Below, piece after piece: positions 10,371 to 34,508 of a stretch of DNA of 51,730 bases. Source of the stretch: Candidatus Alkanophaga liquidiphilum (lineage in GTDB: Archaea > Halobacteriota > Syntropharchaeia > Alkanophagales > B39-G2); NCBI GenBank assembly GCA_029259535.1, contig JAPHEF010000001.1, positions 87,399-139,128 of the forward strand. The letters run 5' to 3'. The translations under genes and the position numbers were made by a program. How positions within the stretch are numbered: the stretch's first letter is position 1; each line of letters opens with the position of its first letter. The notes under the pieces were generated by a model that saw only the letters and a program-made list of their open reading frames with translations, ran no database searches and was not told where the DNA came from.

Positions 10371-13215
10371 ATTTCAATCCCACCTTGGTCTGATTTTCTC
10401 ATGAACTTTGCTCGAAACTGTCTGATAAATGCCTTCATTTCAATCCCACCTTGGTCTGATTTTCTCAACCTCTTCAGCCGTCTCCCTTATCGTAAATAAA
10501 AGATTTCAATCCCACCTTGGTCTGATTTTCTCCAAAAAGCTTGAGCCGAAGCGGACGGAATACAGCATTTCAATCCCACCTTGGTCTGATTTTCTCTCAG
10601 AAGTGCTTCAGATAAAGCCACCCAAGACGGCTCACGAATTTCAATCCCACCTTGGTCTGATTTTCTCACCTCTGCCAGCGTAAATGCCGACCCATTGCCT
10701 GCAATTTCAATCCCACCTTGGTCTGATTTTCTCCAACTGACGGCACGGCGAACGGCAAATATCAAGTAATATTTCAATCCCACCTTGGTCTGATTTTCTC
10801 ACATCTACATGCAGCTTTCGGTGGACGGCTTGACGTTATTTCAATCCCACCTTGGTCTGATTTTCTCGTGATATCAGCGATTGAAGCGAAACTTGCGCAC
10901 GTGAATTTCAATCCCACCTTGGTCTGATTTTCTCTGTTCTTGACGTGCGAGCACCTGCTTACGAGAAGAATTTCAATCCCACCTTGGTCTGATTTTCTCC
11001 TGTATCCTGTCATGCAGGTAATACACAAGAACTGTGATTTCAATCCCACCTTGGTCTGATTTTCTCGCGATGGATAATCGAGCGGAAGACTTGGAGCGAC
11101 CTCGATTTCAATCCCACCTTGGTCTGATTTTCTCTGCTCGAAGTAGTATCTATCGCTCTTCACCAGCATGAAAACATTTCAATCCCACCTTGGTCTGATT
11201 TTCTCTCGCTTTCGGTTTTCGCTGGTGTTAAGAAAAGAAGCAATTTCAATCCCACCTTGGTCTGATTTTCTCATGGAAATAAAAACCTTCCGGCCCGCCT
11301 GGTTAAGGCATTTCAATCCCACCTTGGTCTGATTTTCTCGTAATTAGGGTGAGGGTCGATGACTTGTTGGTATATATTTCAATCCCACCTTGGTCTGATT
11401 TTCTCATATAATGAGATACCAGTGCCTACATCGTGAATTTTGATTTCAATCCCACCTTGGTCTGATTTTCTCGCATCCAGAATCCGCTAAGGAAATAGAG
11501 CAAATGATAGATTTCAATCCCACCTTGGTCTGATTTTCTCGCCGATGTGCTGGAGATAAACGAGGCATTAGTAAATTTCAATCCCACCTTGGTCTGATTT
11601 TCTCTGTATCAATCACGTATGCTCTGTCATCTCCTAAGTCAATTTCAATCCCACCTTGGTCTGATTTTCTCGTTAGGGGGATTGCACGGCAGAGGCTATC
11701 AATCGATGCGGAGTATTCATTTCAATCCCACCTTGGTCTGATTTTCTCCGAGGGAGGTCATCAAGAAGATAGCAAGTGAGTGTGATTTCAATCCCACCTT
11801 GGTCTGATTTTCTCTGTCGCTTTCGGTTTTCGCTTGTGTTAAGAAAAGCAATTTCAATCCCACCTTGGTCTGATTTTCTCCGTTCCATCTCTTGAAGGGC
11901 GCTCTCAATGTGCCGTATTTCAATCCCACCTTGGTCTGATTTTCTCATCCACAACCGCAATTCGGGCATGTTCTCCCTGCGATTTCAATCCCACCTTGGT
12001 CTGATTTTCTCTGGGAGATGCAATACTTGAGCAGCAGATACTTTTGGATTTCAATCCCACCTTGGTCTGATTTTCTCCAAAAAGTTGCACCACAGGTATG
12101 CGTATGAGCCTCTACGATTTCAATCCCACCTTGGTCTGATTTTCTCGCCAAACTCGCACGTAAGAAAGAGCCCTGGGAGATAACGATTTCAATCCCACCT
12201 TGGTCTGATTTTCTCAGAAAAACACGTTTCCCATTGCAGGCGAGGAATCGGATTTCAATCCCACCTTGGTCTGATTTTCTCTAACCTGCAGCTTACAGAC
12301 GAGAAACCTGCCGATTTCTATTTCAATCCCACCTTGGTCTGATTTTCTCGACCGTAGTTATTCAATGTCTATATAGAACTATTGGATTTCAATCCCACCT
12401 TGGTCTGATTTTCTCACAGCTTTTTGTATCTCTTTTGCGACGTTAGCAACATTTCAATCCCACCTTGGTCTGATTTTCTCGCTTAGACCGTCTTGCAGAG
12501 CTTTTCCAAAAAAACTATTTCAATCCCACCTTGGTCTGATTTTCTCAAGAGTTGCAAAAAATTCAAAAACTACAAAACGAGCTAATTTCAATCCCACCTT
12601 GGTCTGATTTTCTCAAGAAAAGTCCCTCCACTGCCTCGCCCGGTGACAAGGATTTCAATCCCACCTTGGTCTGATTTTCTCCCCAGGATGGGCTTAAACC
12701 CACGCCCATGGAAAAATTATTTCAATCCCACCTTGGTCTGATTTTCTCTAACCTGCAACTCGCCGACAAGAAACCAGCAGATTTCTATTTCAATCCCACC
12801 TTGGTCTGATTTTCTCTTTACACCATTAGATTTTACAGTTCTATATACCCAGTATTTCAATCCCACCTTGGTCTGATTTTCTCCGACGTTTCTCAACGAA
12901 CTTGCGAAGAACACGAGAAATTTCAATCCCACCTTGGTCTGATTTTCTCTTCCAAAAAAACTCGTGTCCGAGAGCAGAATGTCAATATTTCAATCCCACC
13001 TTGGTCTGATTTTCTCGCGATTCGCAAAGAGCATATATATTTGATTGACGCATTTCAATCCCACCTTGGTCTGATTTTCTCTCAAGGAAAAGGCGAGCGA
13101 CATTTTTAAGCCTTTTTCATTTCAATCCCACCTTGGTCTGATTTTCTCGGCTTAAATGCGGTGGTCTCGTTCATACTCGGCGTAAATTTCAATCCCACCT
13201 TGGTCTGATTTTCTC
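10371..13215 (-). CRISPR. CRISPR array 1: 43 repeats (GAGAAAATCAGACCAAGGTGGGATTGAAAT in crRNA sense), 42 spacers
   Basis: 30-bp repeats counted by eye, spacers mostly 34-41 nt; leader on the right side; ATTGAAAT 3' end indicates minus-strand transcription. Confidence 0.99.
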
Positions 13216-13574
13216 AGGCAAGTTTCTTTTGCCTGCGCTCTGTTTAAAGTCATGAGGCGGCCCCATATAAAACTTACTATCTCGGATCAGTGATTCTCGT
13301 CCCCATATATAAAGAATCCAGACTCGCCATGTGGGAATTTTTTCAGGTTTACAGGGCTCTCGTGCAGTTTTTTAGAGATAGAAACCATATTTTCGGGGAG
13401 CGCCGACGTGGCGACGCCCTCCTTTCCTCTTCGTGTATTTTCCCCGAACTTCTTCACACCTTTAGGAATAATTGTGTTACCACCGCTACGATCCCAGATG
13501 CCATCTCCGCAGATATCTCGTAAATTTGCAGATTTCAAGCAATTAATTTTTGAAAATAATCGCTTTGTATAGGA
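13216..13574 (-). promoter_or_regulatory. CRISPR leader of array 1
   Basis: Non-coding, A-tract rich, two TTTATAT..GGGG TATA-like boxes near the first repeat; identical copy precedes array 2. Confidence 0.9.
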
Positions 13575-13658
13575 TTAGAGAATACTTTCAATGGAGCTTC
13601 TCTCTATTCCTAAGACCTCCTTCCTCATCGCCGCTTTCGTTCTCAGGATGTAGAGGAA
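13216..13658. repeat. 443-bp inverted repeat copy 1 (leader plus cas2 3' end)
   Basis: Reverse complement of 30692-31134; no difference found by eye. Confidence 0.93.
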
Positions 13659-13838
13659 GATGGAATCTTCGTCCTCGTTTATTATCTTCTTCAGCTCGCT
13701 CTTTATGCGTAGGAGCTCGCTTTCCGTGAGCTCACCCTCGAAGACAGAGTTCTGCACCCAGTTCATGTGCATCCGCAGGAACTTCTTGACCCTGTTCACC
13801 CGCTTGACGTTGACATCGTAGGTGATTATAACGTACAT
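13575..13838 (-). CDS. cas2: CRISPR-associated endonuclease Cas2
   Basis: MYVIITYDV...WVQNSVFEGEL...DEDSIFLY. Confidence 0.97.
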   Translation of the reverse strand: MYVIITYDVNVKRVNRVKKFLRMHMNWVQNSVFEGELTESELLRIKSELKKIINEDEDSIFLYILRTKAAMRKEVLGIERSSIESIL

Positions 13839-14683
13839 ACTAATTTTGCAAGACTCACCACTAATTCTTTCCTCCAGTACGGAGGCTTTGTAGCGCTATG
13901 AGCTAATACAGACTTTAATAATGAGCATTTTCTGTTCCTCAAAAGAGATATCACCTCAGTTGTAGTATGAGGTCTTAGAAGCTCCCGGTATTCACTCTTT
14001 CCATTTTTATACACAAGCCCCCTCTCATCAAGGGAAATATCGTCCTTACTTATAAGGTTGTAAATTTGAGTTTTCTTTAAGTCGCCCCATCCCATGTCTC
14101 TCTTCTTACCGATACTCATTTTAGCCTTTAATGAATTCTCAATATCCTTTTTTTCTCCTCTTGCAACTGCAGTCCAAAGCAGATTGGTCCTTTCGATTCG
14201 AACTTCATAAAATATATCTCTATAGGCTCCTTTTGTCTCCTGAATTTCGCTCAAACTCCCCCTCAATTTTACACCTACTGTTTCTTTCACCAGCAAGATC
14301 TTGGGAATCATGCTTTTCCTAGAGATGCAAATTCTCACTGCTCCGCCGAAGTGAGATTTTACTTCTCTTACGCTCTCTAAGCAGGCGGTTTCTCTATTTA
14401 ACCCGAAGCGCATCTCAGTGTTGTATGGAGTGAGCACTGACAATACGTCTCCCCCTCTCACTGACGGCATGAGGTAAGAAGTTGAAATCGAAGGCGTCCT
14501 ATCTGCTATAGCACGCGTGAGGTCTTCAAGGTAACGTTTGCGCCAATCCCTATTTGCATAATATTTTGCGAATGAAAAAACTCCATCCAGAGTTATCAAA
14601 GTACCCTCCAATATGTTAGGGTTGGAAAAGGTGGCTTGGAAGGGGGGTGTTCTGAAGCCGAGAGTTATAAGGAAAATTGTCAT
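13826..14683 (-). CDS. csf3: Type IV Cas5-like RAMP subunit (Csf3)
   Basis: TLDGVFSFA (LDGxL motif), G-rich loop IGKKRDMGWG and C-terminal KPPYW, all typical of Csf3; start reassigned to ATG 14683. Confidence 0.75.
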   Translation of the reverse strand: MTIFLITLGFRTPPFQATFSNPNILEGTLITLDGVFSFAKYYANRDWRKRYLEDLTRAIADRTPSISTSYLMPSVRGGDVLSVLTPYNTEMRFGLNRETACLESVREVKSHFGGAVRICISRKSMIPKILLVKETVGVKLRGSLSEIQETKGAYRDIFYEVRIERTNLLWTAVARGEKKDIENSLKAKMSIGKKRDMGWGDLKKTQIYNLISKDDISLDERGLVYKNGKSEYRELLRPHTTTEVISLLRNRKCSLLKSVLAHSATKPPYWRKELVVSLAKLVCTL

Positions 14684-14699
14684 GTCTTCTTTTCTCTCC

Positions 14700-15638
14700 T
14701 TACCTTCTTCTGCTTCTTTCTTTGATCTCTGGTGCATCATTCAATGCTTCAAATATCTGATCTATTCTGTCTTGGACGAGCTTTTCATAAGCTTGCTCAT
14801 AGTCCTGAGTATTTATTGATGAAGAGTAACTGACTTCGAGACTGCCAAAACCTCTGACAACTGAGCCACCGACGTTTGGGAAGTTTTTAAGAGTTTTAAA
14901 CACGAGCCCCCACTCTGCATCGGTCAGCGGAATAAGCTCCTCAATGTAGGTAACGAAAACTGTACCTGGAGCTATCGCCTCCCTTGTAAATATCTGTTGG
15001 ACTGCCGCCTCCTCGCGTCCTTCCTTTTCTAAGCCTAAAATTCTGTCAAGTTCCTCAAAGTTTGTTTTAATTTCAAGCTGCGATATCTTTGCTTTGTCGT
15101 CCTTTCTTATCATTTGCACTGAGATCAGAATATCGGAGAGTTTCGTCTTTGGTTGTTCTCTCACCAAGTCATCTATTAAATCATAAGTCTCTTCCACAAC
15201 AGGATACCCGATACCGAATTTCAACTTACTTGGCACCATGAATTTTGCAAGCGCACATCCCATTATGGAAAGTGGCAGGAGAGGTTTAACGTAACTCTCC
15301 ATCTTGTTAGATATCTTTTTAGCGGTAAGTTCCTGCTCACCAGCCCTTGCTAGAATCCCGCCACTAAATAACGTCATGAGAGTTCCTGCATTTGCTGTAA
15401 ATTCTCCAGCAGACCCGCTCTTCTTTGCCTCCCATACTCTTTTAACATCTCTTAAAAATTGAATTGCCATCTCGTCTCTAAAAGCTCCTCTGATGCTGTT
15501 CCCAGGGATTATGGGAACCTCCAAGAGTTCTCCATCTTCCTTCACTATTGGAAGTTTGTAGAGGAGCACGGTCGTCCCGACGGACTCGAATCCCACGCTC
15601 AGAGGCTCTTTTGCCTTGAGTTTAAGAACAACCCGCAT
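14700..15638 (-). CDS. csf2: Type IV Cas7-like RAMP backbone (Csf2)
   Basis: PIIPGNSIRGAFRD, LFSGGIL, PLSIMG and VGGSVVRGFG motifs of the Csf2/type III-like Cas7 group. Confidence 0.8.
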   Translation of the reverse strand: MRVVLKLKAKEPLSVGFESVGTTVLLYKLPIVKEDGELLEVPIIPGNSIRGAFRDEMAIQFLRDVKRVWEAKKSGSAGEFTANAGTLMTLFSGGILARAGEQELTAKKISNKMESYVKPLLPLSIMGCALAKFMVPSKLKFGIGYPVVEETYDLIDDLVREQPKTKLSDILISVQMIRKDDKAKISQLEIKTNFEELDRILGLEKEGREEAAVQQIFTREAIAPGTVFVTYIEELIPLTDAEWGLVFKTLKNFPNVGGSVVRGFGSLEVSYSSSINTQDYEQAYEKLVQDRIDQIFEALNDAPEIKERSRRR

Positions 15639-15639
15639 T

Positions 15640-15996
15640 TTATCCCTCCCCTTCTACCTCTATACCTTTACTTGCAGCGTAGAACACTACACTCAGATAA
15701 GGATAGCGTTTTACGTAGTCTAGGACTTCTTTCTCCATGCTTCTCGCTTTGTCAAGCGATACTCTCAGCGCGTTAGCTTTCTCTTTTGAAAGAAAAATTG
15801 CATCTCCGGCGAGCTCTTTTAACAGGCGCTCTGCGAAGTCTTCCACACTATTAACGGACCTTGAAAGCATAGCGACGCGTTTTGCTAGAATCGTATTCCA
15901 CTTCTTCCGTACGTCTTTTGAGATCTTGCTCCAGTCGATAAGCTCATTAATCGCCCCTAATAAATCTATTACCGCTTCCCTTGCATCTCCTCCCAC
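15640..15996 (-). CDS. cas11: Small alpha-helical subunit (Cas11-like) of type IV module
   Basis: About 118 aa, predicted helical; IDWSKI...W motif; between large subunit and csf2; GAGGTG RBS before GTG 15996. Confidence 0.65.
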   Translation of the reverse strand: MGGDAREAVIDLLGAINELIDWSKISKDVRKKWNTILAKRVAMLSRSVNSVEDFAERLLKELAGDAIFLSKEKANALRVSLDKARSMEKEVLDYVKRYPYLSVVFYAASKGIEVEGEG

Positions 15997-17554
15997 GCTT
16001 ACCACCTCTTTTCGGAGGTTTGGGTAGTACTCTCACCCCATATATCTCCCTCAGCCTCCTTAGACACTCTACTGCTTTATCCTTATTACTTCCTACGAAG
16101 TCCATGATTTCAGAAAACTCCTCTACGGTCAAATCCTTCTTCTCTCCCCAGCATATAACTCCGGATCTTAATGAGCTTTCTAATATGAACTTTTTACGTC
16201 GTCCTACTCTGACCGCTGGATGCATAAATTGTGGAATGAAACTTATGGTTAGAGGTATCAATGTGAATTTAGGATTTAGTAGGAAGGCAGCATCTCTGTA
16301 ACCATCTTCCGTCTTTGCTGCTTCAAGCCAAAGTTTACTAAGCGTCTTAAGCCAGAAGTTTCCGGAGATACTTAATGCGATTTCTTCTTTCACCGGGGCT
16401 TGCATTTGTAGTTGGTATCTTTCAACAAGCGCGGGACTAGGTATTACAGCCCCCTCCGTCCCTTGATCCTCTAATAAAAAGCCGCAGAAACAAGCAGGGC
16501 ACACGTGGTCGCCTGAAAACATCATCTGTGGCGCGTCTGCAAATGTTTTACCAAACTCATACCTGATGTTAGCTGGTTCCCCACAAAATACGCACATGTT
16601 ACTGCCCGTGAGCTCTCCACTGATTGAATTTCTCACACCGTCAGCAGATACTGAGATGTTTTTCTTCGTAGCCCAACTTTCTACTTCCTCCCTTAAAAAC
16701 TCTTCTATACATTCTTTGAAGCTCGCATCGAATCCCGAATCTACATAAATCAGCGCTCCGTCCTTGCTTCCACCAATAGTGAGCATTGAGAGGGCGTCAC
16801 CGTATGAAATTTTTACACCATCGCTTTCGATTAGCGTGTCCCCCTCATAATATTCAATGGAGAACTCCTGCCCGAACTCCCTCGCTACCGGTAGCTTTAT
16901 GCTAAGGGTGTCATCTTTAACCTCCACCCTAAACTCTCCTATATCTAACTCTTTCACAATTCCCTCAATTTCCTCTATTGATCTTATTCGGAAAGAAATG
17001 GTTGGTGAATATATGTATTTCACTCTACTTATACCTAAAACTTCTTTGAATCTTTTAGCATAAGCTCTTGAAAGCTTCTTTATTAAACGCTTGTGTAATA
17101 ACGACGCCACTGTAAATCTATACTCTCCTGAAAGCTTTAAGGGAATCAATTTCAGAAAAGGTGATTGTCCCTCTGTAAGGAAGAGGAAATAATTACCCTC
17201 GATTTGTTCCACCAACTGACTTCTCTCTATTTTTTTGATCGGATTTCCTCTATTATGATGGTGCTGTATTATGACATTGGTAGTTTTACCTAAATCTATA
17301 TTACCTTTAAGACTTTCAAGGATGTTATGATAAATAGAGGGATTTGGAGAGAAATGCCACCAATTTGCTCCTCTCTCTCCTTGATACCAGAGCATCATCC
17401 CTTTGAAAAAGTCATGGATCATGCTTGCTGCAGCTATTTCTTTATCATTCTTCTGTAAGCTTGCAGCAGAAACAACGAGCATGTGGTGGGAAAGGTCGTC
17501 TATCAGTGGAACGGAGGTTTTCTTATCCGTCCTCGCTAACACCCCACGGATCAT
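15947..17554 (-). CDS. Type IV-C-like large subunit: N-terminal HD domain plus Cys4 zinc site (Cas10-like)
   Basis: H...IHDFFK...QHHH HD-type motifs; CVFCG...CPACF zinc ligands; no GGDD; first gene of a csf module. Confidence 0.72.
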   Translation of the reverse strand: MIRGVLARTDKKTSVPLIDDLSHHMLVVSAASLQKNDKEIAAASMIHDFFKGMMLWYQGERGANWWHFSPNPSIYHNILESLKGNIDLGKTTNVIIQHHHNRGNPIKKIERSQLVEQIEGNYFLFLTEGQSPFLKLIPLKLSGEYRFTVASLLHKRLIKKLSRAYAKRFKEVLGISRVKYIYSPTISFRIRSIEEIEGIVKELDIGEFRVEVKDDTLSIKLPVAREFGQEFSIEYYEGDTLIESDGVKISYGDALSMLTIGGSKDGALIYVDSGFDASFKECIEEFLREEVESWATKKNISVSADGVRNSISGELTGSNMCVFCGEPANIRYEFGKTFADAPQMMFSGDHVCPACFCGFLLEDQGTEGAVIPSPALVERYQLQMQAPVKEEIALSISGNFWLKTLSKLWLEAAKTEDGYRDAAFLLNPKFTLIPLTISFIPQFMHPAVRVGRRKKFILESSLRSGVICWGEKKDLTVEEFSEIMDFVGSNKDKAVECLRRLREIYGVRVLPKPPKRGGKRGRRCKGSGNRFIRGD

Positions 17555-17585: not shown

Positions 17586-18560
<975 letters not shown>

Positions 18561-18986
18561 TTAGCCTACATCTTTTACGTGCAGGGCTTCGACCACCCGC
18601 CAGGCTTTATTCACGACTTCTTGGTCTGCCGTCACCAGCTTCGCCCCAGCGAGCTTGGCGAGCGCCACATAACTGGCGTCATATAAGGTAATGTCGAGGT
18701 CGACCGCCGTCCTCACCACCTCCTCACAATACCTGCCCCGCAAGCCCCAAAGCTCAATCCCATACTTCTCCAAAGACTCAGCAGCCCTAATCAGCTCCTC
18801 CTTCGAGTATAGGTTGCTGTAGCGCAGAGCATTGAGCACCTCGTAGGGCATTAAACTCGGGCTCGCAAGCTCGACCGCCCCCCGTATGAACTTGTCCCTG
18901 AGAAGGAGTGCTTTTCCGCTGTGCTCCTCCTCCAAGAACCACTTTACGACCACGGAGGCGTCCACTACGACTTTCTCCGCCGCCAC
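18561..18986 (-). CDS. vapC: VapC-family PIN-domain toxin
   Basis: VVVDASVVVKWF, YEVLNAL, TLYDASYVALA, LVTAD acidic PIN motifs. Confidence 0.9.
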   Translation of the reverse strand: MAAEKVVVDASVVVKWFLEEEHSGKALLLRDKFIRGAVELASPSLMPYEVLNALRYSNLYSKEELIRAAESLEKYGIELWGLRGRYCEEVVRTAVDLDITLYDASYVALAKLAGAKLVTADQEVVNKAWRVVEALHVKDVG

Positions 18987-19195
18987 GCCCTTATCACCTC
19001 CGCGCTGTCCCAGCCCTCGGGCGCCTTCTTACGCAGCTTCTCGTTCAGAAGCACCGCCTCCGCAAGGTTCCTGCCGCTTTCCTCTTTAACCTTACGCTCT
19101 AAAGCCTTCCGAACCACCTCGCTCCAGTTTATATGGCTAAGCCGCTCCATCTCACGCTTCAACCGCTCATCCACACGCACGGTCACCAAAGGCAT
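18965..19195 (-). CDS. vapB: Ribbon-helix-helix antitoxin (VapB-like)
   Basis: VTVRVDERLKREM...INWSEVVRKAL; overlaps the vapC start. Confidence 0.85.
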   Translation of the reverse strand: MPLVTVRVDERLKREMERLSHINWSEVVRKALERKVKEESGRNLAEAVLLNEKLRKKAPEGWDSAEVIRAWRRRKS

Positions 19196-19228: not shown

Positions 19229-19786
19229 TCACGCCGAGAAGCAAAGCTCGTAATAGGCGCACCGTCGGCAAATCGGCTTCCGCTCAGGCTTCGGCAGCCA
19301 CCCACGCACAACACGCTTGATGTCTTCAAGCACCTTTTCAAGCTCCTTTTCAGCCTGTTTGTCGAGCGAAAGCTCTTTCTTCTTCCTGAGCTTCGGGTAG
19401 CTGATCACCGCCTTTACCCTCTCGATACCCTTCCTCTTTTTCAGGAAATAGAGGTAGTAAAGCGTTTGCATCTCATGAGCTTTCTCCATTTTATCGGACT
19501 TCTTCACCTCGTGGATCTCAAGGACTTCGCCGTTCTGCATGAAATCCACCGCTATCAAATCGTCAATAATCACGTTCTTCTCACGTCCCTCATAGCTGTA
19601 TTCGTGCAGTAAGAAGCCCAACGCCACGAGGTCGGACTCCCGCTCCATCTGGATTCCGTGCGAGAACAGCCAGAGCTTCGTCCTGCACACGAAATAGTAG
19701 TTCACCTGCGTCCCCCTGACGAGAAGCTCGTGCTTCAGCTCCCGCTCCAGTTCCGGCTTTGATTCCAACCCCCGCTCGCCGTTCAT
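19229..19786 (-). CDS. cas4: CRISPR-associated Cas4
   Basis: VNYYFVCRTKLWLF, VDF, HEVKKS, QTLYYL, C-terminal CRRCAYYELC Fe-S cluster ligands. Confidence 0.95.
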   Translation of the reverse strand: MNGERGLESKPELERELKHELLVRGTQVNYYFVCRTKLWLFSHGIQMERESDLVALGFLLHEYSYEGREKNVIIDDLIAVDFMQNGEVLEIHEVKKSDKMEKAHEMQTLYYLYFLKKRKGIERVKAVISYPKLRKKKELSLDKQAEKELEKVLEDIKRVVRGWLPKPERKPICRRCAYYELCFSA

Positions 19787-19787
19787 G

Positions 19788-21728
19788 TCAAAGGATGAAA
19801 TCTTCGTCCGCAAGAACTTCTGTGACGATTAAGTCCTCGATCTCTATCCTCTTCTTGCTGTAAAGAGGCGCCAGCCCCCACAAGCATCCCGAAAGCCCCT
19901 CCGAAACCCTCGCATACGACAACCACCTTTCGAGCTTCTCCGAGTAGATGGATTCGATGTAGTCCGAATACAGAAACTTCATCCATTCGTTCCTGTCCAC
20001 GCCTCCGATCTCCGCAAACTCCTCATAAGGGTCTTCAAGCAGAGAGGGCGTAACGACTCCATGCACCACCTTCTCTCTCCTTTCCCGCCAGTCCCCCACT
20101 ACAACTTCCCGCCTCTTCCGGTCTATCCTCTCAATGAAGGCGTTGTCAAGAATCCAGATGAGGTCGTATTCCGTCTCCTCGCCGCCGTAAATCACCTTCC
20201 ACCGCAGCGTGTCCCCTCTGAACCTCCTGAAAGAGTTTTTGAACGACCGCCACCATCTCCTCAGGCTTTCAGCAACGTCCTCGTCCACATTTTCTCCCTC
20301 TAAATACGCCTCGACCATGCTCTCGACCTTAAACATGAACTTCGAAAACGGGAAGCTCTCCTGCAACTTCCTGAGAACCTGCTCTCTCCCGTAGCTCCTC
20401 AGCGCCTTTGAAATCGACCAGAGGACGGCGCCCATGAACCTCGGAATTTTCTCCCTCTTCAGCTCCTTATCCCGAAAGGCTCTACTCACGGCGTCCGAAA
20501 ACTCATAATAGCTCAACTTCCGCCCATCAAACCCCCTCAGAGCCTCGACGACGCTCACGTGCGCCACGCAGTATATCTCGCTCCGCTCTCCCTCTCGCCC
20601 TATCCTCCCAATTCTCTGCATGAAATTCCGCAGGTACCTCCCGGAATCGATGTATGCGAGGCAAACCGGGTAATTGACGCCCACCTCCGCCTTCGCCGTC
20701 GTGATGACTATGTCGTAGTCCGTAGGCTCGAACTCGAAGCCCTTTTGCCTCGTCTGGAGCCCCGTATTCACCCCTATTCGGGCGTCAGGAAACTCCGCAC
20801 GTATCTTCCTTTCCGCCAGCAAAGCCTCCCTCAAAGAGTCGAAAAGGAAGAAGGCTCTCTTGTTATCGTCCAGAGCCTCTGAGAGTCCCTCCTTTACCTC
20901 CTCTCTCAGACCGTCGCCCTCGAACAGCCATTTGTAAAGGGAGCCTTGCCTCGAAACCTCGATGAAATGAATTTCCTGCTCTCCTTGAACGGCGCGTCCC
21001 TCTCTCCCCACTTCTTGCCGCGCAAGCTCCCACTCTAACCCTTCCAAGTATTCAAACAAGACCCCCTCTGGTGTTGCGGAGGAGAAGAACCATTTGATGT
21101 CGAAAAATTCTCTAACCGACAGTAGCATCATCAGGACGTTGGCAATTTGCTCCTCATCGTAGAGATGGTATTCGTCGAAGACGATGTAGTCCAGCTTGTT
21201 GAAGAACTCCGTCCAGTCCGGGAAACTTAAGATGTAACGCTCCCTTCCGCTCCAGTCGGTATGGTAGCCGCCGTGAATGAGGAAATTTATGATGTCAGGA
21301 TTCGTCACCACGACCTCCGCCGCCGTCACCCGCTCAAGCAACTCCTTTGCTCTTTCAATGCCGTGCCGCTCCAGCCTCTGCCCCGTCAGAATTTCGACTT
21401 TGATGTATTTGTCGAGCGTCCTCGCCATGTCCTCGACGAGCGCATTGGTGGGAGCGACAATTAGCCCCCGCCTCGGCATCAAATCTTCTTTGGAGCGGAG
21501 AGAGGGCAGCATGAAGGCGAACGTCTTGCCGGCGCCCGTCGGCGCAACGACTACCGTCACCTCCTTCCGCTCGCTCAAATCCGAATAGAACACCTCTTGA
21601 AACTTGTGAAGCCGGAGCATGTCTCCGCCAAGCTCGATCTGAACGCTCCCGAACGGAATCCTTTTCTCCTCGACCGTGACGGTGACGGACTCCGAAGCTG
21701 GAGCTGTATCTGAAGGCGAGCCGCTCAT
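19788..21728 (-). CDS. cas3: Type I-D helicase Cas3' (no HD domain)
   Basis: APTGAGKT, TNPDI, FDEYHLY, SSATP, QRIGRIGR; no N-terminal HD domain. Confidence 0.92.
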   Translation of the reverse strand: MSGSPSDTAPASESVTVTVEEKRIPFGSVQIELGGDMLRLHKFQEVFYSDLSERKEVTVVVAPTGAGKTFAFMLPSLRSKEDLMPRRGLIVAPTNALVEDMARTLDKYIKVEILTGQRLERHGIERAKELLERVTAAEVVVTNPDIINFLIHGGYHTDWSGRERYILSFPDWTEFFNKLDYIVFDEYHLYDEEQIANVLMMLLSVREFFDIKWFFSSATPEGVLFEYLEGLEWELARQEVGREGRAVQGEQEIHFIEVSRQGSLYKWLFEGDGLREEVKEGLSEALDDNKRAFFLFDSLREALLAERKIRAEFPDARIGVNTGLQTRQKGFEFEPTDYDIVITTAKAEVGVNYPVCLAYIDSGRYLRNFMQRIGRIGREGERSEIYCVAHVSVVEALRGFDGRKLSYYEFSDAVSRAFRDKELKREKIPRFMGAVLWSISKALRSYGREQVLRKLQESFPFSKFMFKVESMVEAYLEGENVDEDVAESLRRWWRSFKNSFRRFRGDTLRWKVIYGGEETEYDLIWILDNAFIERIDRKRREVVVGDWRERREKVVHGVVTPSLLEDPYEEFAEIGGVDRNEWMKFLYSDYIESIYSEKLERWLSYARVSEGLSGCLWGLAPLYSKKRIEIEDLIVTEVLADEDFIL

Positions 21729-26121: not shown

Positions 26122-26712
26122 ATGAGACCGGCGCACGTCATCGTCATCGGTTTCCACGCCGCCCACATCTACAAGCCGCTCGTCGAGTTCGGCGCCTCGA
26201 AGGTCGTCTTAGTTTACTCCACCAAGGAGGAGGTCGAAGGGAGAGTCGCTGATGCGCTCGCGGAGGCTCGCCGCCTTTTCTCCGGCTTAGGTCTGCCGTA
26301 TGAGGAGCTAAAGCTCGAAGCTTACGAGTTCGAGCAGAACGTCGAGCTCCTGCGGAAGGTCATCAGGCGGGAGCGGCAAGTTATCGTCAACCTCACCGGC
26401 GGGCGGAAGATAACGTCGTTCGCCCTCCTCTACGCTGCACTCCTCGAGCCCGAGCATGTGAAAGCCATCGTTTACGTAAGCGAGGACGACGAAATCATAC
26501 GACTACCGAAGTTCCTGCCGAGCGTGAGCATCACGCCCTCCGAGCGCAAAGTCTTGAACGTCCTTGGTAAGGGGAAGTGCGTCTCCGAAATAGCCGAAAA
26601 GCTTGATATATCCCTGCCAGCGGCAATAAAGCTTGTCGGCAGCCTCGAGAGGAAGGGATTAGTAAGAAGCGAGCGAGTGGGGCGGAAAAGATTAGTCATG
26701 CCGCTTTTCTGA
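26122..26712 (+). CDS. csa3: CARF-wHTH transcriptional regulator Csa3
   Basis: N-terminal IGFH motif, VNLTGGRK CARF motif, C-terminal HTH (SEIAEKLDIS...LERKGLV). Confidence 0.88.
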   Translation: MRPAHVIVIGFHAAHIYKPLVEFGASKVVLVYSTKEEVEGRVADALAEARRLFSGLGLPYEELKLEAYEFEQNVELLRKVIRRERQVIVNLTGGRKITSFALLYAALLEPEHVKAIVYVSEDDEIIRLPKFLPSVSITPSERKVLNVLGKGKCVSEIAEKLDISLPAAIKLVGSLERKGLVRSERVGRKRLVMPLF

Positions 26713-27453
26713 TGTCTGCTGACGCCCCTTAACAACCTCCACCATCCCGAAGCCCATGGAGTTTTTCTCGCCGAAGCCAGCCTCATATCCGAACTTGAGA
26801 AGGGCAGGGTCGCCACGTGCGACGAAGCTCATCATCGTGCCCCGATGCCACGTATTTTTAATTTGCGTTCTGACGAGCTTTGCCGCCCCCCTCGGCTCCA
26901 CTTGGAAGTCCCCGCTCGGCGGCGTCCCGTAGAAATCCTCATACTTCCCCAAAAGGTTTTTGCGGAGGTTTTCGTAGAACTTCCGTTCCGACGGATATAG
27001 GTCCCAAGTTTTGCGCCGCCCATCGGCATCGACGACAGTCCGCACCACGATGGGCGACAGCGTTCTGAACACCACCTCACTTCCAATTTCGGGCGTTTTC
27101 AGCGTCTCGATACGTTCCACGACGAACCTCGCATTTGTGATTTGAAACTCCGGCTCTCCGAGGACGCCTTCGACGAACGCCGAGACCACGCTCGCCTTCG
27201 GCGACGAAAAGAGGAAGCGGCAGTCCTTCAGCCAGAGTTTGTCCTGCACGACCCTGCGGAAGCCTTCGGGGAACAGCCGTGAGAACGTGAAAAACTTAAA
27301 GCGCTGTTGGCGGCTGTGCAAGCCGAGCTCCGGGCGCACGCTCATAATCTTTCGATAAATGGCACTGGCTACCATGTAATTGTAGTTCAACGGTAGCTTC
27401 TGAATACGCTCCGAGCGTAAGCTCACTCTGACCCGCATTCTTCCCCCATTCAA
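26692..27453 (-). CDS. cas6: CRISPR endoribonuclease Cas6
   Basis: LPLNYNY, FKFFTFSRL, TLSPIVV, G-rich loop AGFGEKNSMGFGMV. Confidence 0.95.
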   Translation of the reverse strand: MNGGRMRVRVSLRSERIQKLPLNYNYMVASAIYRKIMSVRPELGLHSRQQRFKFFTFSRLFPEGFRRVVQDKLWLKDCRFLFSSPKASVVSAFVEGVLGEPEFQITNARFVVERIETLKTPEIGSEVVFRTLSPIVVRTVVDADGRRKTWDLYPSERKFYENLRKNLLGKYEDFYGTPPSGDFQVEPRGAAKLVRTQIKNTWHRGTMMSFVARGDPALLKFGYEAGFGEKNSMGFGMVEVVKGRQQTSEKRHD

Positions 27454-28012
27454 ACTTTAAGAGGAACATACATTTCCTGCCGCCTCGCAGTGATGCTGGC
27501 GGCGACGATGCCCACCTCGTAAAACGCAATGAGCGGACCGGCGACGCCCGCCTGTCTGAAGACGTCGGGCGGCGTGAAGAGAGCGGCGAGCGTGAAGATT
27601 GCCACACATTCGTGCTTGCGGAACTTTTTGAGCGTCTCCGAAATGAGCATGACGCCTTCGGGCAGCAAATCCCCCTTTATCCGCAGGATGACGTGATTCA
27701 TGAGCGGGAAGGATACGCACATGCCTCCTAATTATGCTTAAAATAATCATAAGCTTCTTCTTAATTACAAACTTGTGGTCATTAACATTCACATCATTCA
27801 GACTTAAAATAATCATAAGCTTCTTCTTAATTGCCGCAGTTATATAACCCAGCTCTCGAAATATGCTCACGGACGCACCCCCATGACCAAAGATAGAACG
27901 GATGCGCCGCAGGCTCGTAGCATGCCTCATCTCCCTACTTTCCATATTCGTGCCCCTCCATGTCTCGACGACTCCCACCTCTGCCAGCCGACTCATCTCC
28001 CTACTTTCCATA
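27450..28012 (-). pseudogene. tatC: Internally deleted tatC remnant(s)
   Basis: Start-like MESREM with GAGGGG RBS; RELGYITAAIKKKLMIILSII..SFPLMNHVILRIKGDLLPEG (TatC N-terminal-like) joined to LKKFRKH..VAIFTLAALFTPPDVFRQ..PLIAFYEVGI (TatC C-terminal TPPD/YE motifs). Confidence 0.72.
27737..27832. repeat. 30-bp direct duplication flanking a 36-bp insert
   Basis: CTTAAAATAATCATAAGCTTCTTCTTAATT at 27737-27766 and 27803-27832. Confidence 0.95.
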
Positions 28013-28024
28013 TTCGTGCCCCTC
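27926..28024. repeat. 33-bp direct duplication flanking a 33-bp insert
   Basis: CTCATCTCCCTACTTTCCATATTCGTGCCCCTC at 27926-27958 and 27992-28024. Confidence 0.95.
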
Positions 28025-28059
28025 TTCTTTTTTCGGGTCTGGTGCGCAAATCCCCCCTC

Positions 28060-28500
28060 TATTATTTTTTCCCAACACATGCTCTTTACGTTTACAGTCC
28101 GACGGAGTGGGTCGGTTTGCGGCTGAAGTTCTCGTTCCTATGTGCAGCTGTCACAATGCCCCTCTGGATATATGAAACTGCTTATCACTATCGTGGCGTT
28201 CCTGCTGTTCGGCGCCTCGAAGGTGCCGGAGCTGGCACGGGCGCTCGGTAAGCAATGGAGAGCTCAAGAAGACGCAAAAGGAGGCTGAACTCGACCTCAA
28301 AAGGGTTCGAAGCAGGAGCTGGTTGCAAAGGGCTTTGAGAAGAGCGGTGGCGAGCTGAACCTCGTAGAAATTGCAAAGAAGCTGCGGCTGTGGGACTGCT
28401 GAGAACATGCCAAGTCCGGCTGAACCTCGTAGAAATTGCAAAGAAGCTGGGCATTGCGTAACGTCGCATCAGCGCAGCAATCGCTTAAGAAGAAGTTGAG
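28060..28500 (+). pseudogene. tatA: Inverted tatC fragment fused to frameshifted tatA remnant
   Basis: LYVYSPTEWVGLRLKFSFLCAAVTMPLWIYE (TatC-like), then LLITIVAFLLFGASKVPELARALGK..ELKKTQKE (TatA signature) and LVEIAKKLGI. Confidence 0.75.
28354..28449. repeat. 31-bp direct duplication flanking a 34-bp insert
   Basis: GCTGAACCTCGTAGAAATTGCAAAGAAGCTG at 28354-28384 and 28419-28449. Confidence 0.95.
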
Positions 28501-28503
28501 AGC

Positions 28504-29240
28504 ATGAAGTTAAGGATTTTTCTCTGCACTTGTTACCGCACTTTGGGCGTCATCCATAAGGATGTCAAGCGAGACTTGGCTGAGGCTGAAGGCGTCGAGA
28601 TTATCGAAGTTCACGATGCTCTTTGCCTTGAGGACGGTCTCGACACCAGTCTCGGCGACATTAAACGCTTCGAGCTCGACGCTGTTATAATCGGCGCCTG
28701 CACGGAAAAACGTCGCTCCTTCGAACTTGCAACGCACGGGATTAGCACCTGCCTTGTGAACCTCAGAGAGCACTGTGGTTGGGTTCATGATAAAAAGGAG
28801 GCTACTGAAAAGGCAAAAAGTATGCTCAAGGCTGCAGTCATCCAGTCACAATGCAGCTCTCTGCCAGAGACTCTTATCCCGGACGTAGGAGAGGACGTGC
28901 TGGTCATCAGCGACGAGGAGGTAGCAAGAATCAAAGCTCGCAAACGTCCACCTCGTGACTAAAACTTCCAGGATGGAATGATTCTATCAAAATACACGTA
29001 GGAGAGGTTAAGAAAGTAAAAGGAGGCATAGGGAACTTCCAAGTAGAGATCAAAAAGCCTATAAGTTTAGAGCGGTGCATCTCCTGCGGGAAGACGTTCG
29101 CAACGAAAGCCGCCATCCAGAAAATAGCGGAGGCGACAGGCTGGCGACGACGAGCATCTTAACGCCGAAACCCGCTTAGAGCTTCTGAAATACTGCCAGG
29201 GGTGTAGGCCGCTGGTTGCATTAACGCGCTTACATTAACC
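28504..29240 (+). pseudogene. Truncated HdrA-like / 4Fe-4S protein
   Basis: IFLCTC, ALC, IIGAC, VNLREHCGWVH..ATEKAK (HdrA N-terminal motifs); after a stop, VKGGIGNFQVEI..ERCISCGK and CQGCRP fragments. Confidence 0.7.
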
Positions 29241-30691: not shown

Positions 30692-31134
30692 TTCCTCTAC
30701 ATCCTGAGAACGAAAGCGGCGATGAGGAAGGAGGTCTTAGGAATAGAGAGAAGCTCCATTGAAAGTATTCTCTAATCCTATACAAAGCGATTATTTTCAA
30801 AAATTAATTGCTTGAAATCTGCAAATTTACGAGATATCTGCGGAGATGGCATCTGGGATCGTAGCGGTGGTAACACAATTATTCCTAAAGGTGTGAAGAA
30901 GTTCGGGGAAAATACACGAAGAGGAAAGGAGGGCGTCGCCACGTCGGCGCTCCCCGAAAATATGGTTTCTATCTCTAAAAAACTGCACGAGAGCCCTGTA
31001 AACCTGAAAAAATTCCCACATGGCGAGTCTGGATTCTTTATATATGGGGACGAGAATCACTGATCCGAGATAGTAAGTTTTATATGGGGCCGCCTCATGA
31101 CTTTAAACAGAGCGCAGGCAAAAGAAACTTGCCT
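30692..31134 (+). repeat. 443-bp inverted repeat copy 2: orphan cas2 3' fragment plus leader of array 2
   Basis: Begins with cas2 codons FLYILRTKAAMRKEVLGIERSSIESIL*, then a leader identical to that of array 1. Confidence 0.93.
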
Positions 31135-34100
31135 GAGAAAATCAGACCAAGGTGGGATTGAAATTTTTCACCATGAATGCGTTCTTTACCGCCATAACTC
31201 AGAGAAAATCAGACCAAGGTGGGATTGAAATTTATTGAGAAAGCGCCCTGTTTCCCTCCAACTCCACGAGAAAATCAGACCAAGGTGGGATTGAAATTTT
31301 CTTCAAAGCATAAGTCGCCGCTTGTTACCGTGAGAGAAAATCAGACCAAGGTGGGATTGAAATACGACGGCGCCGTTTTGAGAGTGCTTAATCAGTTAGT
31401 GAGAAAATCAGACCAAGGTGGGATTGAAATCATCATATACAATTTTCATTTTTGCCACCACCTCTCGGAGAGAAAATCAGACCAAGGTGGGATTGAAATT
31501 AACATGAAACGGATTGGGACGTTTGGCGCAGTAGGAGAAAATCAGACCAAGGTGGGATTGAAATTATCCTTATCCATCCACACCACCATACCCTTTCATT
31601 GAGAAAATCAGACCAAGGTGGGATTGAAATCTCTGCTGCATTGATGCGTCCTCCCAATGTGGATGCTGAGCGAGAAAATCAGACCAAGGTGGGATTGAAA
31701 TGCGCTCCCAGAAAGTGGGCTTTAAATAGGATGCCACGGAGAAAATCAGACCAAGGTGGGATTGAAATTTCTTATCCTCGTCAAAGAGCACCTCTCTCCC
31801 TCTGAGAAAATCAGACCAAGGTGGGATTGAAATCTATCTGCTTCTCGTCTATCGGTTCGCCGTCATCGTGAGAGAAAATCAGACCAAGGTGGGATTGAAA
31901 TACGCTTGCACAAACCACCACCTCCTTCTGACCTCTCGGAGAAAATCAGACCAAGGTGGGATTGAAATATGGCTCGTCTATACCCTTTACTATCGACGCC
32001 CCTAGAGAAAATCAGACCAAGGTGGGATTGAAATGATTAGCATCGATTTTCTGAGCCACTGTTGATGCCGAGAAAATCAGACCAAGGTGGGATTGAAATC
32101 GTTTTGGGATGGTCTTTGTGAGGCAGCATAACACATGAGAAAATCAGACCAAGGTGGGATTGAAATACGTGATGATAAAGCGGTATTCCATCTCTGGTGT
32201 AAGAGAAAATCAGACCAAGGTGGGATTGAAATAACCATTCGGATTCCTCCAAGTGGGCAAGTGGCACGGGAGAAAATCAGACCAAGGTGGGATTGAAATA
32301 GTGGCAGCGTATCCCGTGAGATTCCAGGTCAGTTTTTGAGAAAATCAGACCAAGGTGGGATTGAAATCATACATTGCATTTATAGACGAGCCACCGACCA
32401 CGCGAGAAAATCAGACCAAGGTGGGATTGAAATCTCGTCGTATTCTGCGTGGCACCAAGGGCACCTTATTTGAGAAAATCAGACCAAGGTGGGATTGAAA
32501 TTACCCATCATGATGGTCTATGTAGAGAATCTCAGCGAGAGAAAATCAGACCAAGGTGGGATTGAAATTTCTCTCCCTGGGACAGGGACAGGTCCACTAT
32601 CCCGGAGAAAATCAGACCAAGGTGGGATTGAAATTCGTATCGTCGGCTACTTCGTTTCGACCAGTAATGCAGAGAAAATCAGACCAAGGTGGGATTGAAA
32701 TGACTGCCAGCAGTCCTTCATCTGCCTCGTTCAAGAAGAGAAAATCAGACCAAGGTGGGATTGAAATTCAAGGTGAGTTTCTGGATGTTGCCACCGCTTA
32801 CGTGAGAAAATCAGACCAAGGTGGGATTGAAATCTAGTAGCTCCGCCCAAAGATGCACGAATCGTGCAAGAGAAAATCAGACCAAGGTGGGATTGAAATC
32901 ACATCTTCCCATATCTTCGTTTTGAACACTTGTTCCTGAGAAAATCAGACCAAGGTGGGATTGAAATCATACACAGTGCGGTCAACTAGCAGAATTCTTT
33001 GAGAGAAAATCAGACCAAGGTGGGATTGAAATCGATAGTCGCCCTTCCGCCCATGCATTACGCCTTCGAGTGTTGGAGAAAATCAGACCAAGGTGGGATT
33101 GAAATCAAGACACGATGAAGAGTTTGTTTAAATTGCTGCGACGGAGAAAATCAGACCAAGGTGGGATTGAAATAAAAAATTGCACCAGGCTTAAAATTTC
33201 GATGCCTATGAGAAAATCAGACCAAGGTGGGATTGAAATTAATCTCGTTGTAAAGCTCATTCAAATAAGCTTCCGAGAAAATCAGACCAAGGTGGGATTG
33301 AAATTCATTTTTCATGCCTGGTGCAATTTTTCTTGGAGCACGAGAAAATCAGACCAAGGTGGGATTGAAATAAGTTACTATAACCGCTGATGCAAGCTGT
33401 GAAGGGGAGAAAATCAGACCAAGGTGGGATTGAAATTCTTGTTTATTTATTCCTCCTCATAAGCGCAAAGCGCGAGAAAATCAGACCAAGGTGGGATTGA
33501 AATAGAATCTCTGATGCGGCTATTAGCTCTTCTTTGTAGAGAGAAAATCAGACCAAGGTGGGATTGAAATCTTTGCAGCTCCACTTGCACATTCCATTTG
33601 CATCTCTGAGAAAATCAGACCAAGGTGGGATTGAAATATCGGGCAGTGGGCTCATGCCTCACATTGACGTGCTCGAGAAAATCAGACCAAGGTGGGATTG
33701 AAATCGTAGAGGCTCAAATTCATACCTCTCGTGTAACGAAGAGAAAATCAGACCAAGGTGGGATTGAAATTCGCTCGCTCTCAAGAGGATGGTTATTATA
33801 GTTTTGAGAAAATCAGACCAAGGTGGGATTGAAATGACGCCACGTATGAACCCATGGGGGAAATTCATGAGAGAGAAAATCAGACCAAGGTGGGATTGAA
33901 ATATCACGGGGATTTGTGAGACGGCACTTAGAAACTTCTGCCATGAGAAAATCAGACCAAGGTGGGATTGAAATCTCGATGCAATAAAGAGGATTGAGTT
34001 TAAAGAGAGAAAATCAGACCAAGGTGGGATTGAAATACCCTCACCACTTCAAGCTAAGACCATCGAAGACAATAACATCAGTTTTCTCGTTGGGTGGGAT

Positions 34101-34508
34101 TGAAATACCCTCACCACTTCAAGCTCGGCGTTCTTCCCTGCGTCGGAGAAAATCAGACCAAGGTGGGATTGAAATCTTCGGTCTGCCTATCTGCTTGCCT
34201 TCGAGGAGCGCGAGAAAATCAGACCAAGGTGGGATTGAAATAGGGAGCCGAGAGCGCCCAGAGCAATGCTTATTGTTGGAGAAAATCAGACCAAGGTGGG
34301 ATTGAAATTATATCTGTGAATCAATAAGCCTAAGACCTGGCCCAGAGAAAATCAGACCAAGGTGGGATTGAAATGATTTAGCCGCCCTCTCTGCTATCAA
34401 CAAGTCTTTCGAGAGAAAATCAGACCAAGGTGGGATTGAAATGATGGTGGAACGGGAGATAGATGCGGGTAATTGGAGGAGAAAATCAGACCAAGGTGGG
34501 ATTGAAAG
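31135..34508 (+). CRISPR. CRISPR array 2: 50 full repeats plus one partial repeat, same repeat as array 1
   Basis: GAGAAAATCAGACCAAGGTGGGATTGAAAT; terminal copy ends in ...GAAAG; anomaly at 34023-34125. Confidence 0.99.

Follow-up and report, generated by a model that had tools for sequence, protein, structure and literature searches.

Three units in a decayed tat operon beside cas6

The 51,730-nucleotide (nt) stretch of DNA considered here in its full length (the window) belongs to the uncultured archaeon Candidatus Alkanophaga liquidiphilum and corresponds to positions 87399-139128 of contig C1 of a 1.91-Mb draft genome (designated G000; 89 contigs, 5122 N, 90%-complete), which also carries a full-length match to archaeal small-subunit ribosomal RNA and an archaeal histone. 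It contains genes and arrays of a CRISPR-Cas (short palindromic repeats, clustered and regularly interspaced, with their associated proteins) system, and immediately beyond cas6 lie the remnants of a tat operon that are interrupted by three short duplications, each wrapped around a unique insert (S1, S2, and S3). These three units and their possible origin from misdirected spacer integration are the subject of this report. The features concerned are as follows.

27737-27766 and 27803-27832: repeat copies of S1 (30 nt, 100% identical), insert 27767-27802 (36 nt), period 66
27926-27958 and 27992-28024: repeat copies of S2 (33 nt, 100% identical), insert 27959-27991 (33 nt), period 66
28354-28384 and 28419-28449: repeat copies of S3 (31 nt, 100% identical), insert 28385-28418 (34 nt), period 65
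27450-28450: tat pseudo-operon (Pfam TatC and TatA fragments), with a tatC remnant on the minus strand (~27450-27900), a second tatC remnant on the plus strand (~28030-28180) and a tatA remnant on the plus strand (28142-28450)
26692-27453, minus strand: cas6 (TIGR01877, 155.7 bits), directly adjoining the tat pseudo-operon

A first-pass annotation made from the sequence alone had described three perfect, unrelated direct repeats (30, 33, and 31 nt) around unique inserts (36, 33, and 34 nt), and its coordinates proved to be exact. The three units fall within 713 bp; neither their repeat sequences nor their inserts are related to one another, and the inserts possess no common termini and no inverted arms. 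A second copy of the S1, S2, or S3 insert is absent from the genome (best chance matches ≤16 nt), so that an origin of the inserts from adjacent chromosomal DNA or as degenerate copies, a possibility that the annotation had raised against its own proposal, can be rejected. Each unit hence consists of a spacer-length insert between repeat-length direct duplications outside the arrays, in a genome whose canonical CRISPR repeat measures 30 nt. The 120 canonical spacers of the arrays with this repeat are all distinct and 32-47 nt long, with modes at 36 nt (42 spacers) and 37 nt (37 spacers), and the corresponding unit periods range from 62 to 77, with modes at 66 (42 units) and 67 (37 units); 91/120 units fall at 65-67. 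The periods of 66, 66, and 65 found in S1-S3 therefore match the local CRISPR unit, as had been noticed at the outset.

The two tatC remnants are divergent, and all remnants lie immediately beyond cas6. An intact tat operon, 66-67% identical to the operons of relatives, is present on contig C16 of the same genome; the copy in the window has been reduced to fragments of 22-58 amino acids (aa) in differing reading frames, with 48-55% identity (tblastn), and metagenome runs revealed strain-specific deletions of 1-2 nt at 28303 and 28305, as a pseudogene would show. In five genomes of the neighbouring family the arrangement is intact, with a minus-strand tatC followed by a plus-strand tatC and a plus-strand tatA. 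S1 is positioned within the N-terminal remnant of the minus-strand tatC, where it duplicates the codons for AIKKKLMIILS, and its target segment (IKKKL) is single-copy in all five loci of the relatives and in the intact C16 paralog. S3 resides within the tatA remnant and duplicates LNLVEIAKKL; the homologous VNIREVAKYMGI is again single-copy in 5/5 loci of the relatives, and the S3 target occurs once in the C16 paralog. For S1 and S3, the expectation of single-copy ancestral sites was thus borne out. S2 is situated in the stretch separating the two tatC remnants, for which the loci of these relatives (n=5) offer no alignable counterpart; its original assignment to the ribosome-binding site and start of tatC is unsupported, while the placement of S1 in tatC and of S3 in tatA stands. 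The scars presumably persist because the dead second tat copy would make such insertions neutral.

Filled and empty alleles of the locus could be compared in wild populations. We aligned Logan contigs from four runs of four studies (X1, X3, X6, and X7) on positions 27200-29000; public runs in which the locus occurs bear the label of marine or sediment metagenomes. One contig of 1745 nt from X3 (depth 12) and one of 1863 nt from X6 (depth 20), which stem from two other studies, are collinear with the window over 27200-28383 with 6-7 differing letters (~99.6% identity), and both skip exactly 66 nt at 27736>27803 (S1) and at 27925>27992 (S2). At these joints the full 30 or 33 nt fits on either side, leaving one repeat copy and no insert. 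Since the single-copy state of the relatives is the ancestral one, we read the empty S1 and S2 alleles as the pre-insertion condition. X1 shows no differing letters, and its unitigs cover all junctions of S1-S3 at a depth of 250-350, compared with 300-390 in the flanks, so that the junctions are spanned by independent unitigs, a point on which the first-pass annotation had made its proposal depend; X1 may be the window's own sample, and its depth ratios are too noisy to yield the share of empty alleles. Runs X4 and X5, which come from the X1 sample, contain 0.78 of the sampled words. The unitig of the S3 insert (28355-28448) was recovered in each of the four runs, and hence in four studies; an empty S3 allele is undetectable in these 31-mer contigs since the S3 repeat itself measures 31 nt, and X7, with no cover over 27717-28068, is uninformative on S1 and S2. 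The simplest reading of these data is that S3 was inserted before the strains diverged (~0.4% divergence) and represents the older event, and that S1 and S2 were added later in the lineage of the window and are polymorphic.

A foreign source for the S2 insert

When the S2 insert was used as a query against metagenome contigs, a single exact match was obtained, on a contig of 1164 bp (L007). The identity reaches 39/39, with positions 27953-27991 of the window corresponding to L007 657-619, and lies inside an open reading frame (ORF) of 297 aa. On L007, CCA borders this protospacer on one side and TGG on the other, so that CCA is found on both strands. A contig of 261 nt in run X3 repeats the L007 context of the S2 protospacer; at least two data sets therefore contain the element. 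A blast search of the 120 canonical spacers against L007 returned one full match, to a spacer of array 1, and a partial match at the same site to a spacer of array 2:

12078-12116, minus strand: array 1 spacer of 39 nt; L007 969-931, 38/39; 5' flank TTCCA
33705-33740, plus strand: array 2 spacer of 36 nt; same site of L007 (969-931) with the same first base, 26/36

The array 1 protospacer is located ~275 nt from that of S2. Judging by its partial match, the array 2 spacer is probably directed against a diverged relative of the L007 invader. Three further spacers share only a motif of 13-14 nt (GGTGCAATTTTT) of L007 931-969, so that 5/120 canonical spacers touch this site, which appears to be a conserved and repeatedly sampled site of an otherwise unknown family of ORFan elements. 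In the host genome, L007 DNA has no match beyond the S2 insert and the array 1 spacer. Its 297-aa ORF belongs to no Pfam or PHROG family (the sole match, to TrmB with E = 0.091, is below threshold), has no relatives in viral contigs, in 68 genomes of the order, or among plasmids and phages, and returned only itself from an index of 5.8 billion proteins. L007 is foreign and CRISPR-targeted; a label of 'virus' or 'plasmid' is unsupported.

From these matches, the S2 insert would be a piece of an invader, flanked by a protospacer-adjacent motif (PAM), that the arrays of the host already target, the kind of cargo expected of an adaptation complex. Its capture fits an immune response to the L007 element. 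Because the array 1 spacer is slightly mismatched (38/39), primed adaptation is a reasonable context for S2, and the insert may possibly have been captured in this way. As in type I primed adaptation, the S2 fragment stems from a position at most ~300 nt away from the protospacer of the 38/39 spacer and is bordered by the same CCA; in contrast to it, the product lies outside an array, the orientation of S2 is ambiguous with CCA on both strands, and we infer the priming itself.

The search for insert sources and a shared PAM that had been proposed was productive for S2, with its CCA-flanked match on L007; among viral contigs, exact searches with the S1, S2, and S3 inserts gave no match. The two canonical spacers that touch L007 have no matches in viral contigs either. 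The canonical spacers have no true match in their own genome outside the arrays (7 chance matches of 16-18 nt), and a search with array 1 in the genomes of the order recovered only arrays, in G000 and in a same-genus sister species (G001), together with one weak repeat-like match.

The S2 joint deserves separate consideration. The source and the filled allele share 39 nt instead of the 33 nt of the insert, and the additional CCCCTC constitutes the last 6 nt of the duplicated target, an identity that would arise by chance with a probability of ~5e-4 (hand calculation). The true borders of S2 hence encompass a spacer of 36-39 nt and a duplication of 27-30 nt. They can be set in three ways: a spacer of 39 nt combined with 27 nt of duplication; a spacer of 36 nt combined with 30 nt of duplication, the PAM then being CCC on the plus strand; or these latter lengths with CCA as PAM on the minus strand. 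In all three, one and the same hexamer marks the site where the invader was cut and the site where the fragment entered the chromosome. In S1 (exactly 30+36), no hexamer-type extension is present at the joints. The hexamer of S2 may reflect an untrimmed 3' end that paired with the target, or one joint that was formed by annealing and repair.

Isolated repeat pairs and the CRISPR-Cas surroundings

We scanned the whole 1.91-Mb genome for perfect direct repeats of at least 20 nt at periods of 40-120 and obtained 156 rows. Apart from S1-S3, every row fell into four CRISPR arrays or into tandem or coding repeats, and S1-S3 were the sole isolated perfect repeats of at least 28 nt with a gap of 30-42 nt; the other rows of that size, C2:75784 and C2:75925, are part of a multi-copy coding repeat. 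The genome-wide scan suggested in the first-pass annotation (repeats of 28-34 bp with gaps of 30-42 bp) accordingly singles out the three units beside cas6 and no others. A second scan outside the arrays, with mismatches allowed (at least 25/28 matching) and periods of 35-200, yielded 19 clusters, namely 13 tandem or multi-period clusters, the S1+S2 pair, and five single pairs with periods of 65 (S3), 65 (C12:26796), 65 (C18:10820), 69 (on C20, whose motif recurs in the coding repeat family of C2), and 77 (on C54). The isolated repeat pairs of this genome hence have the CRISPR-unit period almost exclusively: 5/7 lie at periods 64-68 of 166 possible (P ~5e-7), and of those pairs found after the hypothesis had been formed, 2/4 do so (P ~5e-3; both hand calculations). 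The two late-found pairs with a period of 65 are:

G000:C12:26796-26890: C12 unit
G000:C18:10820-10913: C18 unit

One of them has a repeat of 30 nt with 2 mismatches and a gap of 35 nt, the other a repeat of 29 nt with 1 mismatch and a gap of 36 nt. Both are found in non-coding stretches that are not conserved in G001, and neither gap sequence has a match in viral contigs. By their form, the C12 and C18 units are candidates for older ectopic integrations. Beside the C18 unit lies a multi-copy element of ~280 nt (L008 1156-1432; G000:C18:10955-11231), with 13 matches of 68-80% identity in the sister genome.

All five candidate units of the genome are thus in non-functional DNA, three in the pseudo-operon and two in unconserved non-coding DNA, and purifying selection elsewhere must therefore shape the pattern that is seen. 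Three units within 713 bp nevertheless exceed the expectation under survivorship alone (P ~6e-4), calculated with a crude neutral target of ~140 kb (DNA outside any 100-codon frame) to which the tat region belongs only in part. Three of the five candidate units adjoin cas6. In the sister species, 145 kb around the arrays and cas6 contained one isolated pair at periods of 35-200:

G001:C1:71205-71304 (L035 1205-1304): duplication of 32 nt, perfect, around a unique gap of 36 nt; period 68 (mode of the G001 arrays, 67)

About 4.8 kb separate it from an array, at whose leader-side end it lies outside, and the surrounding 1.4 kb are without counterpart in G000. From these few events, proximity to the cas and leader region may matter for integration.

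The CRISPR-Cas genes and arrays of the window are the following.

10371-13215, minus strand: array 1, 43 repeats of 30 nt; leader 13216-13415
13632-13838, minus strand: cas2 (PF09827, 81.6 bits; open frame of 106 aa; G000:C1:101030-101236)
17586-18557, minus strand: type I-B-like cas1 (TIGR03641, 471 bits, 323 aa)
19229-19813, minus strand: cas4 (PF01930, 181 bits)
31135-34508, plus strand: array 2, 50 repeats of 30 nt; leader 30935-31134

Arrays 1 and 2 have the same 30-nt repeat, which has no exact matches in representative genomes of other species, and their leaders, identical over at least 200 nt, are inverted and face inward, so that the two arrays bracket the whole cas region. Between them are also located cas3', csc1, csc2, a gene for a csa3-like regulator, and a gene for a candidate large subunit of 882 aa without family match. 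The adaptation module is intact, with cas1, cas2, and cas4 all present, and the 120 distinct array spacers suggest that it is active; the cas1 gene at 17586-18557 is the sole cas1 match in the 90%-complete genome. A third array, on contig C32, carries a variant of the repeat of arrays 1 and 2. Its leader has conserved blocks in common with theirs, among them CTTCTTTATATAT and, just upstream of the first repeat, AAAAGAAA. A further array, on contig C7, has a 36-nt repeat and a period of 70-74. With their duplications of ~30 nt, the tat units fit the 30-nt repeat system, whose cas1, cas2, and cas4 genes are 8-14 kb away, and not the C7 array.

Three further observations were made in this region. 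From cas2 to cas1 (13826-17554), there are genes for two proteins of the RAMP (repeat-associated mysterious protein) type with weak, below-cut-off similarity to Csf3 and Csf2 (type IV), and a 535-aa cysteine-rich ORF without family match; these genes may form a type IV-like or otherwise divergent effector module that has been inserted into the adaptation operon. From cas1 to cas4 (18561-19195), a gene for a PIN-domain (VapC-like) protein and an overlapping ORF of 76 aa look like a toxin-antitoxin pair (VapBC-like). Within array 2, a 33-nt direct repeat at 34023-34055 with a period of 70 spans a repeat end and a spacer start and is a duplicated or partly duplicated spacer unit.

Probable ectopic integration, its alternatives and its meaning

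We consider it very probable that S1-S3 represent three independent natural off-target (ectopic) integrations of spacers by the Cas1-Cas2 integrase of the host, in which Cas4 probably also participated. In such an event, the integrase, loaded with a spacer-sized fragment of invader DNA, would carry out two staggered strand-transfer attacks ~30 bp apart, not on the leader-proximal CRISPR repeat but on ordinary chromosomal DNA; the ~30 bp between the attack points would subsequently be duplicated by gap repair, and the product would mimic a repeat-spacer-repeat unit whose 'repeat' is a tat gene sequence. Staggered transesterifications by Cas1-Cas2 followed by gap repair are established (PMC6698737). 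This origin was the central proposal of the first-pass annotation, and it is now strengthened by the empty S1 and S2 alleles, by the PAM-flanked source of S2, and by the CRISPR-unit period that prevails among the isolated pairs of the genome.

Several observations weigh against this interpretation. From the finished product alone, we infer that Cas1-Cas2 was the catalyst. The duplicated targets agree with the CRISPR repeat at 14/30 (S1), 12/30 (S2), and 11/30 (S3) positions, which is not beyond chance (genome-wide null: P(≥14) = 0.0085 and P(≥12) = 0.05 per test), and the 'echoes' of the repeat end that had been reported in them likewise do not exceed chance. No leader-like stretch is present in 27400-28600, since the best alignment there scores 11, no more than the median of the null. 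The 6 nt shared at the joint of S2 go beyond what plain transesterification predicts. With a guanine-plus-cytosine content of 67% and 62%, the S2 and S3 inserts lie above the 29-61% found in the 120 canonical spacers. Sources were found neither for the S1 insert in viral and genome contigs (0 matches in the latter) nor for the S3 insert in viral contigs, and CCA is known as the PAM from one canonical protospacer site. The filled forms of S1 and S2 were seen only in the window and in X1, which may be one and the same sample, and the empty alleles might conceivably have arisen by precise deletion between the repeat copies and so not represent the ancestral state.

A course of events without Cas1-Cas2 would be microhomology-mediated template switching, whereby a stalled 3' end anneals to invader DNA, copies ~35 nt, and returns ~30 nt upstream. 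The CCCCTC identity between the source contig and the target at one S2 joint is what such a process might leave behind; at the other S2 joint and at both joints of S1 there is no microhomology, however, and the S1 repeat measures exactly 30 nt. A fixed length and a PAM are not among the expectations of template switching, whereas three events here and two elsewhere in the genome share the period of 65-66 of the CRISPR unit and the S2 fragment is bounded by CCA, as at the canonical protospacer on L007. We regard it as very improbable. The units might also be footprints of an unknown mobile element, or of another integrase with target-site duplications of ~30 bp, in so far as a direct duplication around an insert is a general signature of transposition. 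The inserts, however, are unrelated and unique, lack common termini, encode nothing within their 33-36 nt, and in the case of S2 consist of an internal piece of a protein-coding gene on a foreign contig; we know of no transposon or integrase family with target duplications of 30 bp, and the chance that this explanation applies seems slim.

An artefact of assembly, or what is left of a degenerate CRISPR array, might be suspected in view of the draft state of the genome (89 contigs, 5122 N) and of filled S1 and S2 that were seen in X1 only, possibly the window's sample. Against this stand the unitigs over every junction at full depth in X1, the presence of S3 in four studies, and the choice of a PAM-flanked protospacer from a CRISPR-targeted contig, which an artefact would not make; a relic array is at odds with repeats that are tat coding sequence with homologues in relatives and not CRISPR repeats. 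Such an origin can be practically disregarded. Compatible with ectopic integration is the proposal that the units are functional 'neo-CRISPR' seeds, either transcribed and processed for defence or still growing. They do have the form repeat-spacer-repeat, and for Escherichia coli an origin of arrays from off-target integration has been suggested (10.1101/148544 and PMC6698737, in their passages citing Nivala 2018). Each unit here contains a single insert, however; the later insertions, S1 and S2, landed elsewhere at distances of 400-600 bp and did not extend S3, the duplicated sequences have no significant identity to the repeat recognized by Cas6, and a leader is missing. The seeding of new arrays that the first-pass annotation had envisaged has accordingly left no sign, each unit still being a singleton, and we deem a role as functional seeds very improbable.

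Ectopic integration by Cas1-Cas2 has precedents in experimental systems. It was described for E. coli cells overproducing Cas1-Cas2 (Nivala 2018, as reported in passages of 10.1101/148544, PMC7054753, PMC11788318, and PMC9456107), and these passages mention rare genomic off-target events, with only 'circumstantial' evidence in two other species according to the preprint 10.1101/148544. The neo-CRISPR loci of E. coli resemble S1-S3 in that a spacer-sized insert lies between duplicated repeat-length chromosomal sequences in a cell with an active adaptation module. In contrast to E. coli, the events reported here are natural ones in an uncultured archaeon with a type I-B-like Cas1 and Cas4 and no overexpression; three of them are clustered within 713 bp, empty-site alleles exist in wild populations, and the origin of one insert was located in a PAM-flanked protospacer of a canonically targeted element. 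Off-target integration in vitro is on record for several systems (PMC6698737, PMC13769266, and PMC13748974). Closest to our case is Pyrococcus furiosus with its 30-bp repeat, whose Cas1-Cas2 makes paired attacks 30-31 bp apart at non-CRISPR DNA, following the rule of 'guanines and/or cytosines 30 bp apart' that is stated in PMC6698737. The ends of the duplications in the tat region, C/T (S1), C/C (S2), and G/G-or-T (S3), are mostly G or C and agree loosely with the attack points in P. furiosus, which according to the same paper are mostly G or C. The off-target sites of P. furiosus are described there as having positionally conserved repeat-like bases, whereas the repeat identity of the S1-S3 targets is insignificant; moreover, the P. 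furiosus events are in vitro products (PMC6698737), whereas S1-S3 are in vivo outcomes fixed in a genome.

A more distant parallel is provided by the casposase, a Cas1 homologue, which is likewise a Cas1-family integrase that makes staggered cuts and leaves a target-site duplication. The casposon target-site duplication amounts to ~14-15 bp. In the tat region, by contrast, there is no casposon and there are no terminal repeats, the inserts measure 33-36 nt, and the duplication spans 30 bp. Our literature searches found no natural, polymorphic, source-traced ectopic integration; a report in print is still conceivable. S1-S3 hence constitute an unusually well-documented natural case of a known process.

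Off-target integration by Cas1-Cas2 has been documented mainly under overexpression and in vitro, and the question addressed by the present locus is its natural rate and its cost to the host. The locus amounts to a natural, datable series with one old and two recent polymorphic events, one of which, S2, is tied to an invader targeted by the arrays. It provides in vivo off-target sites of an archaeal Cas4-Cas1-Cas2 system that lack obvious similarity to repeat or leader, against which specificity models derived in vitro can be tested, and the hexamer of S2 hints at a possible role of base pairing in the choice of the site. Where CRISPR finders report two-repeat 'mini-arrays' close to cas loci, these may represent similar scars and not arrays. 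It is conceivable, if rather unlikely in our estimation, that off-target integration acts in wild archaea as a regular, measurable, and non-random mutational process, with events concentrated in the few kb around cas genes and leaders and with sites possibly picked by base pairing. If this were true, adaptation would carry a local, sequence-guided mutational cost, and natural scars could be mined for the target rules of the integrase and for the birth of arrays.

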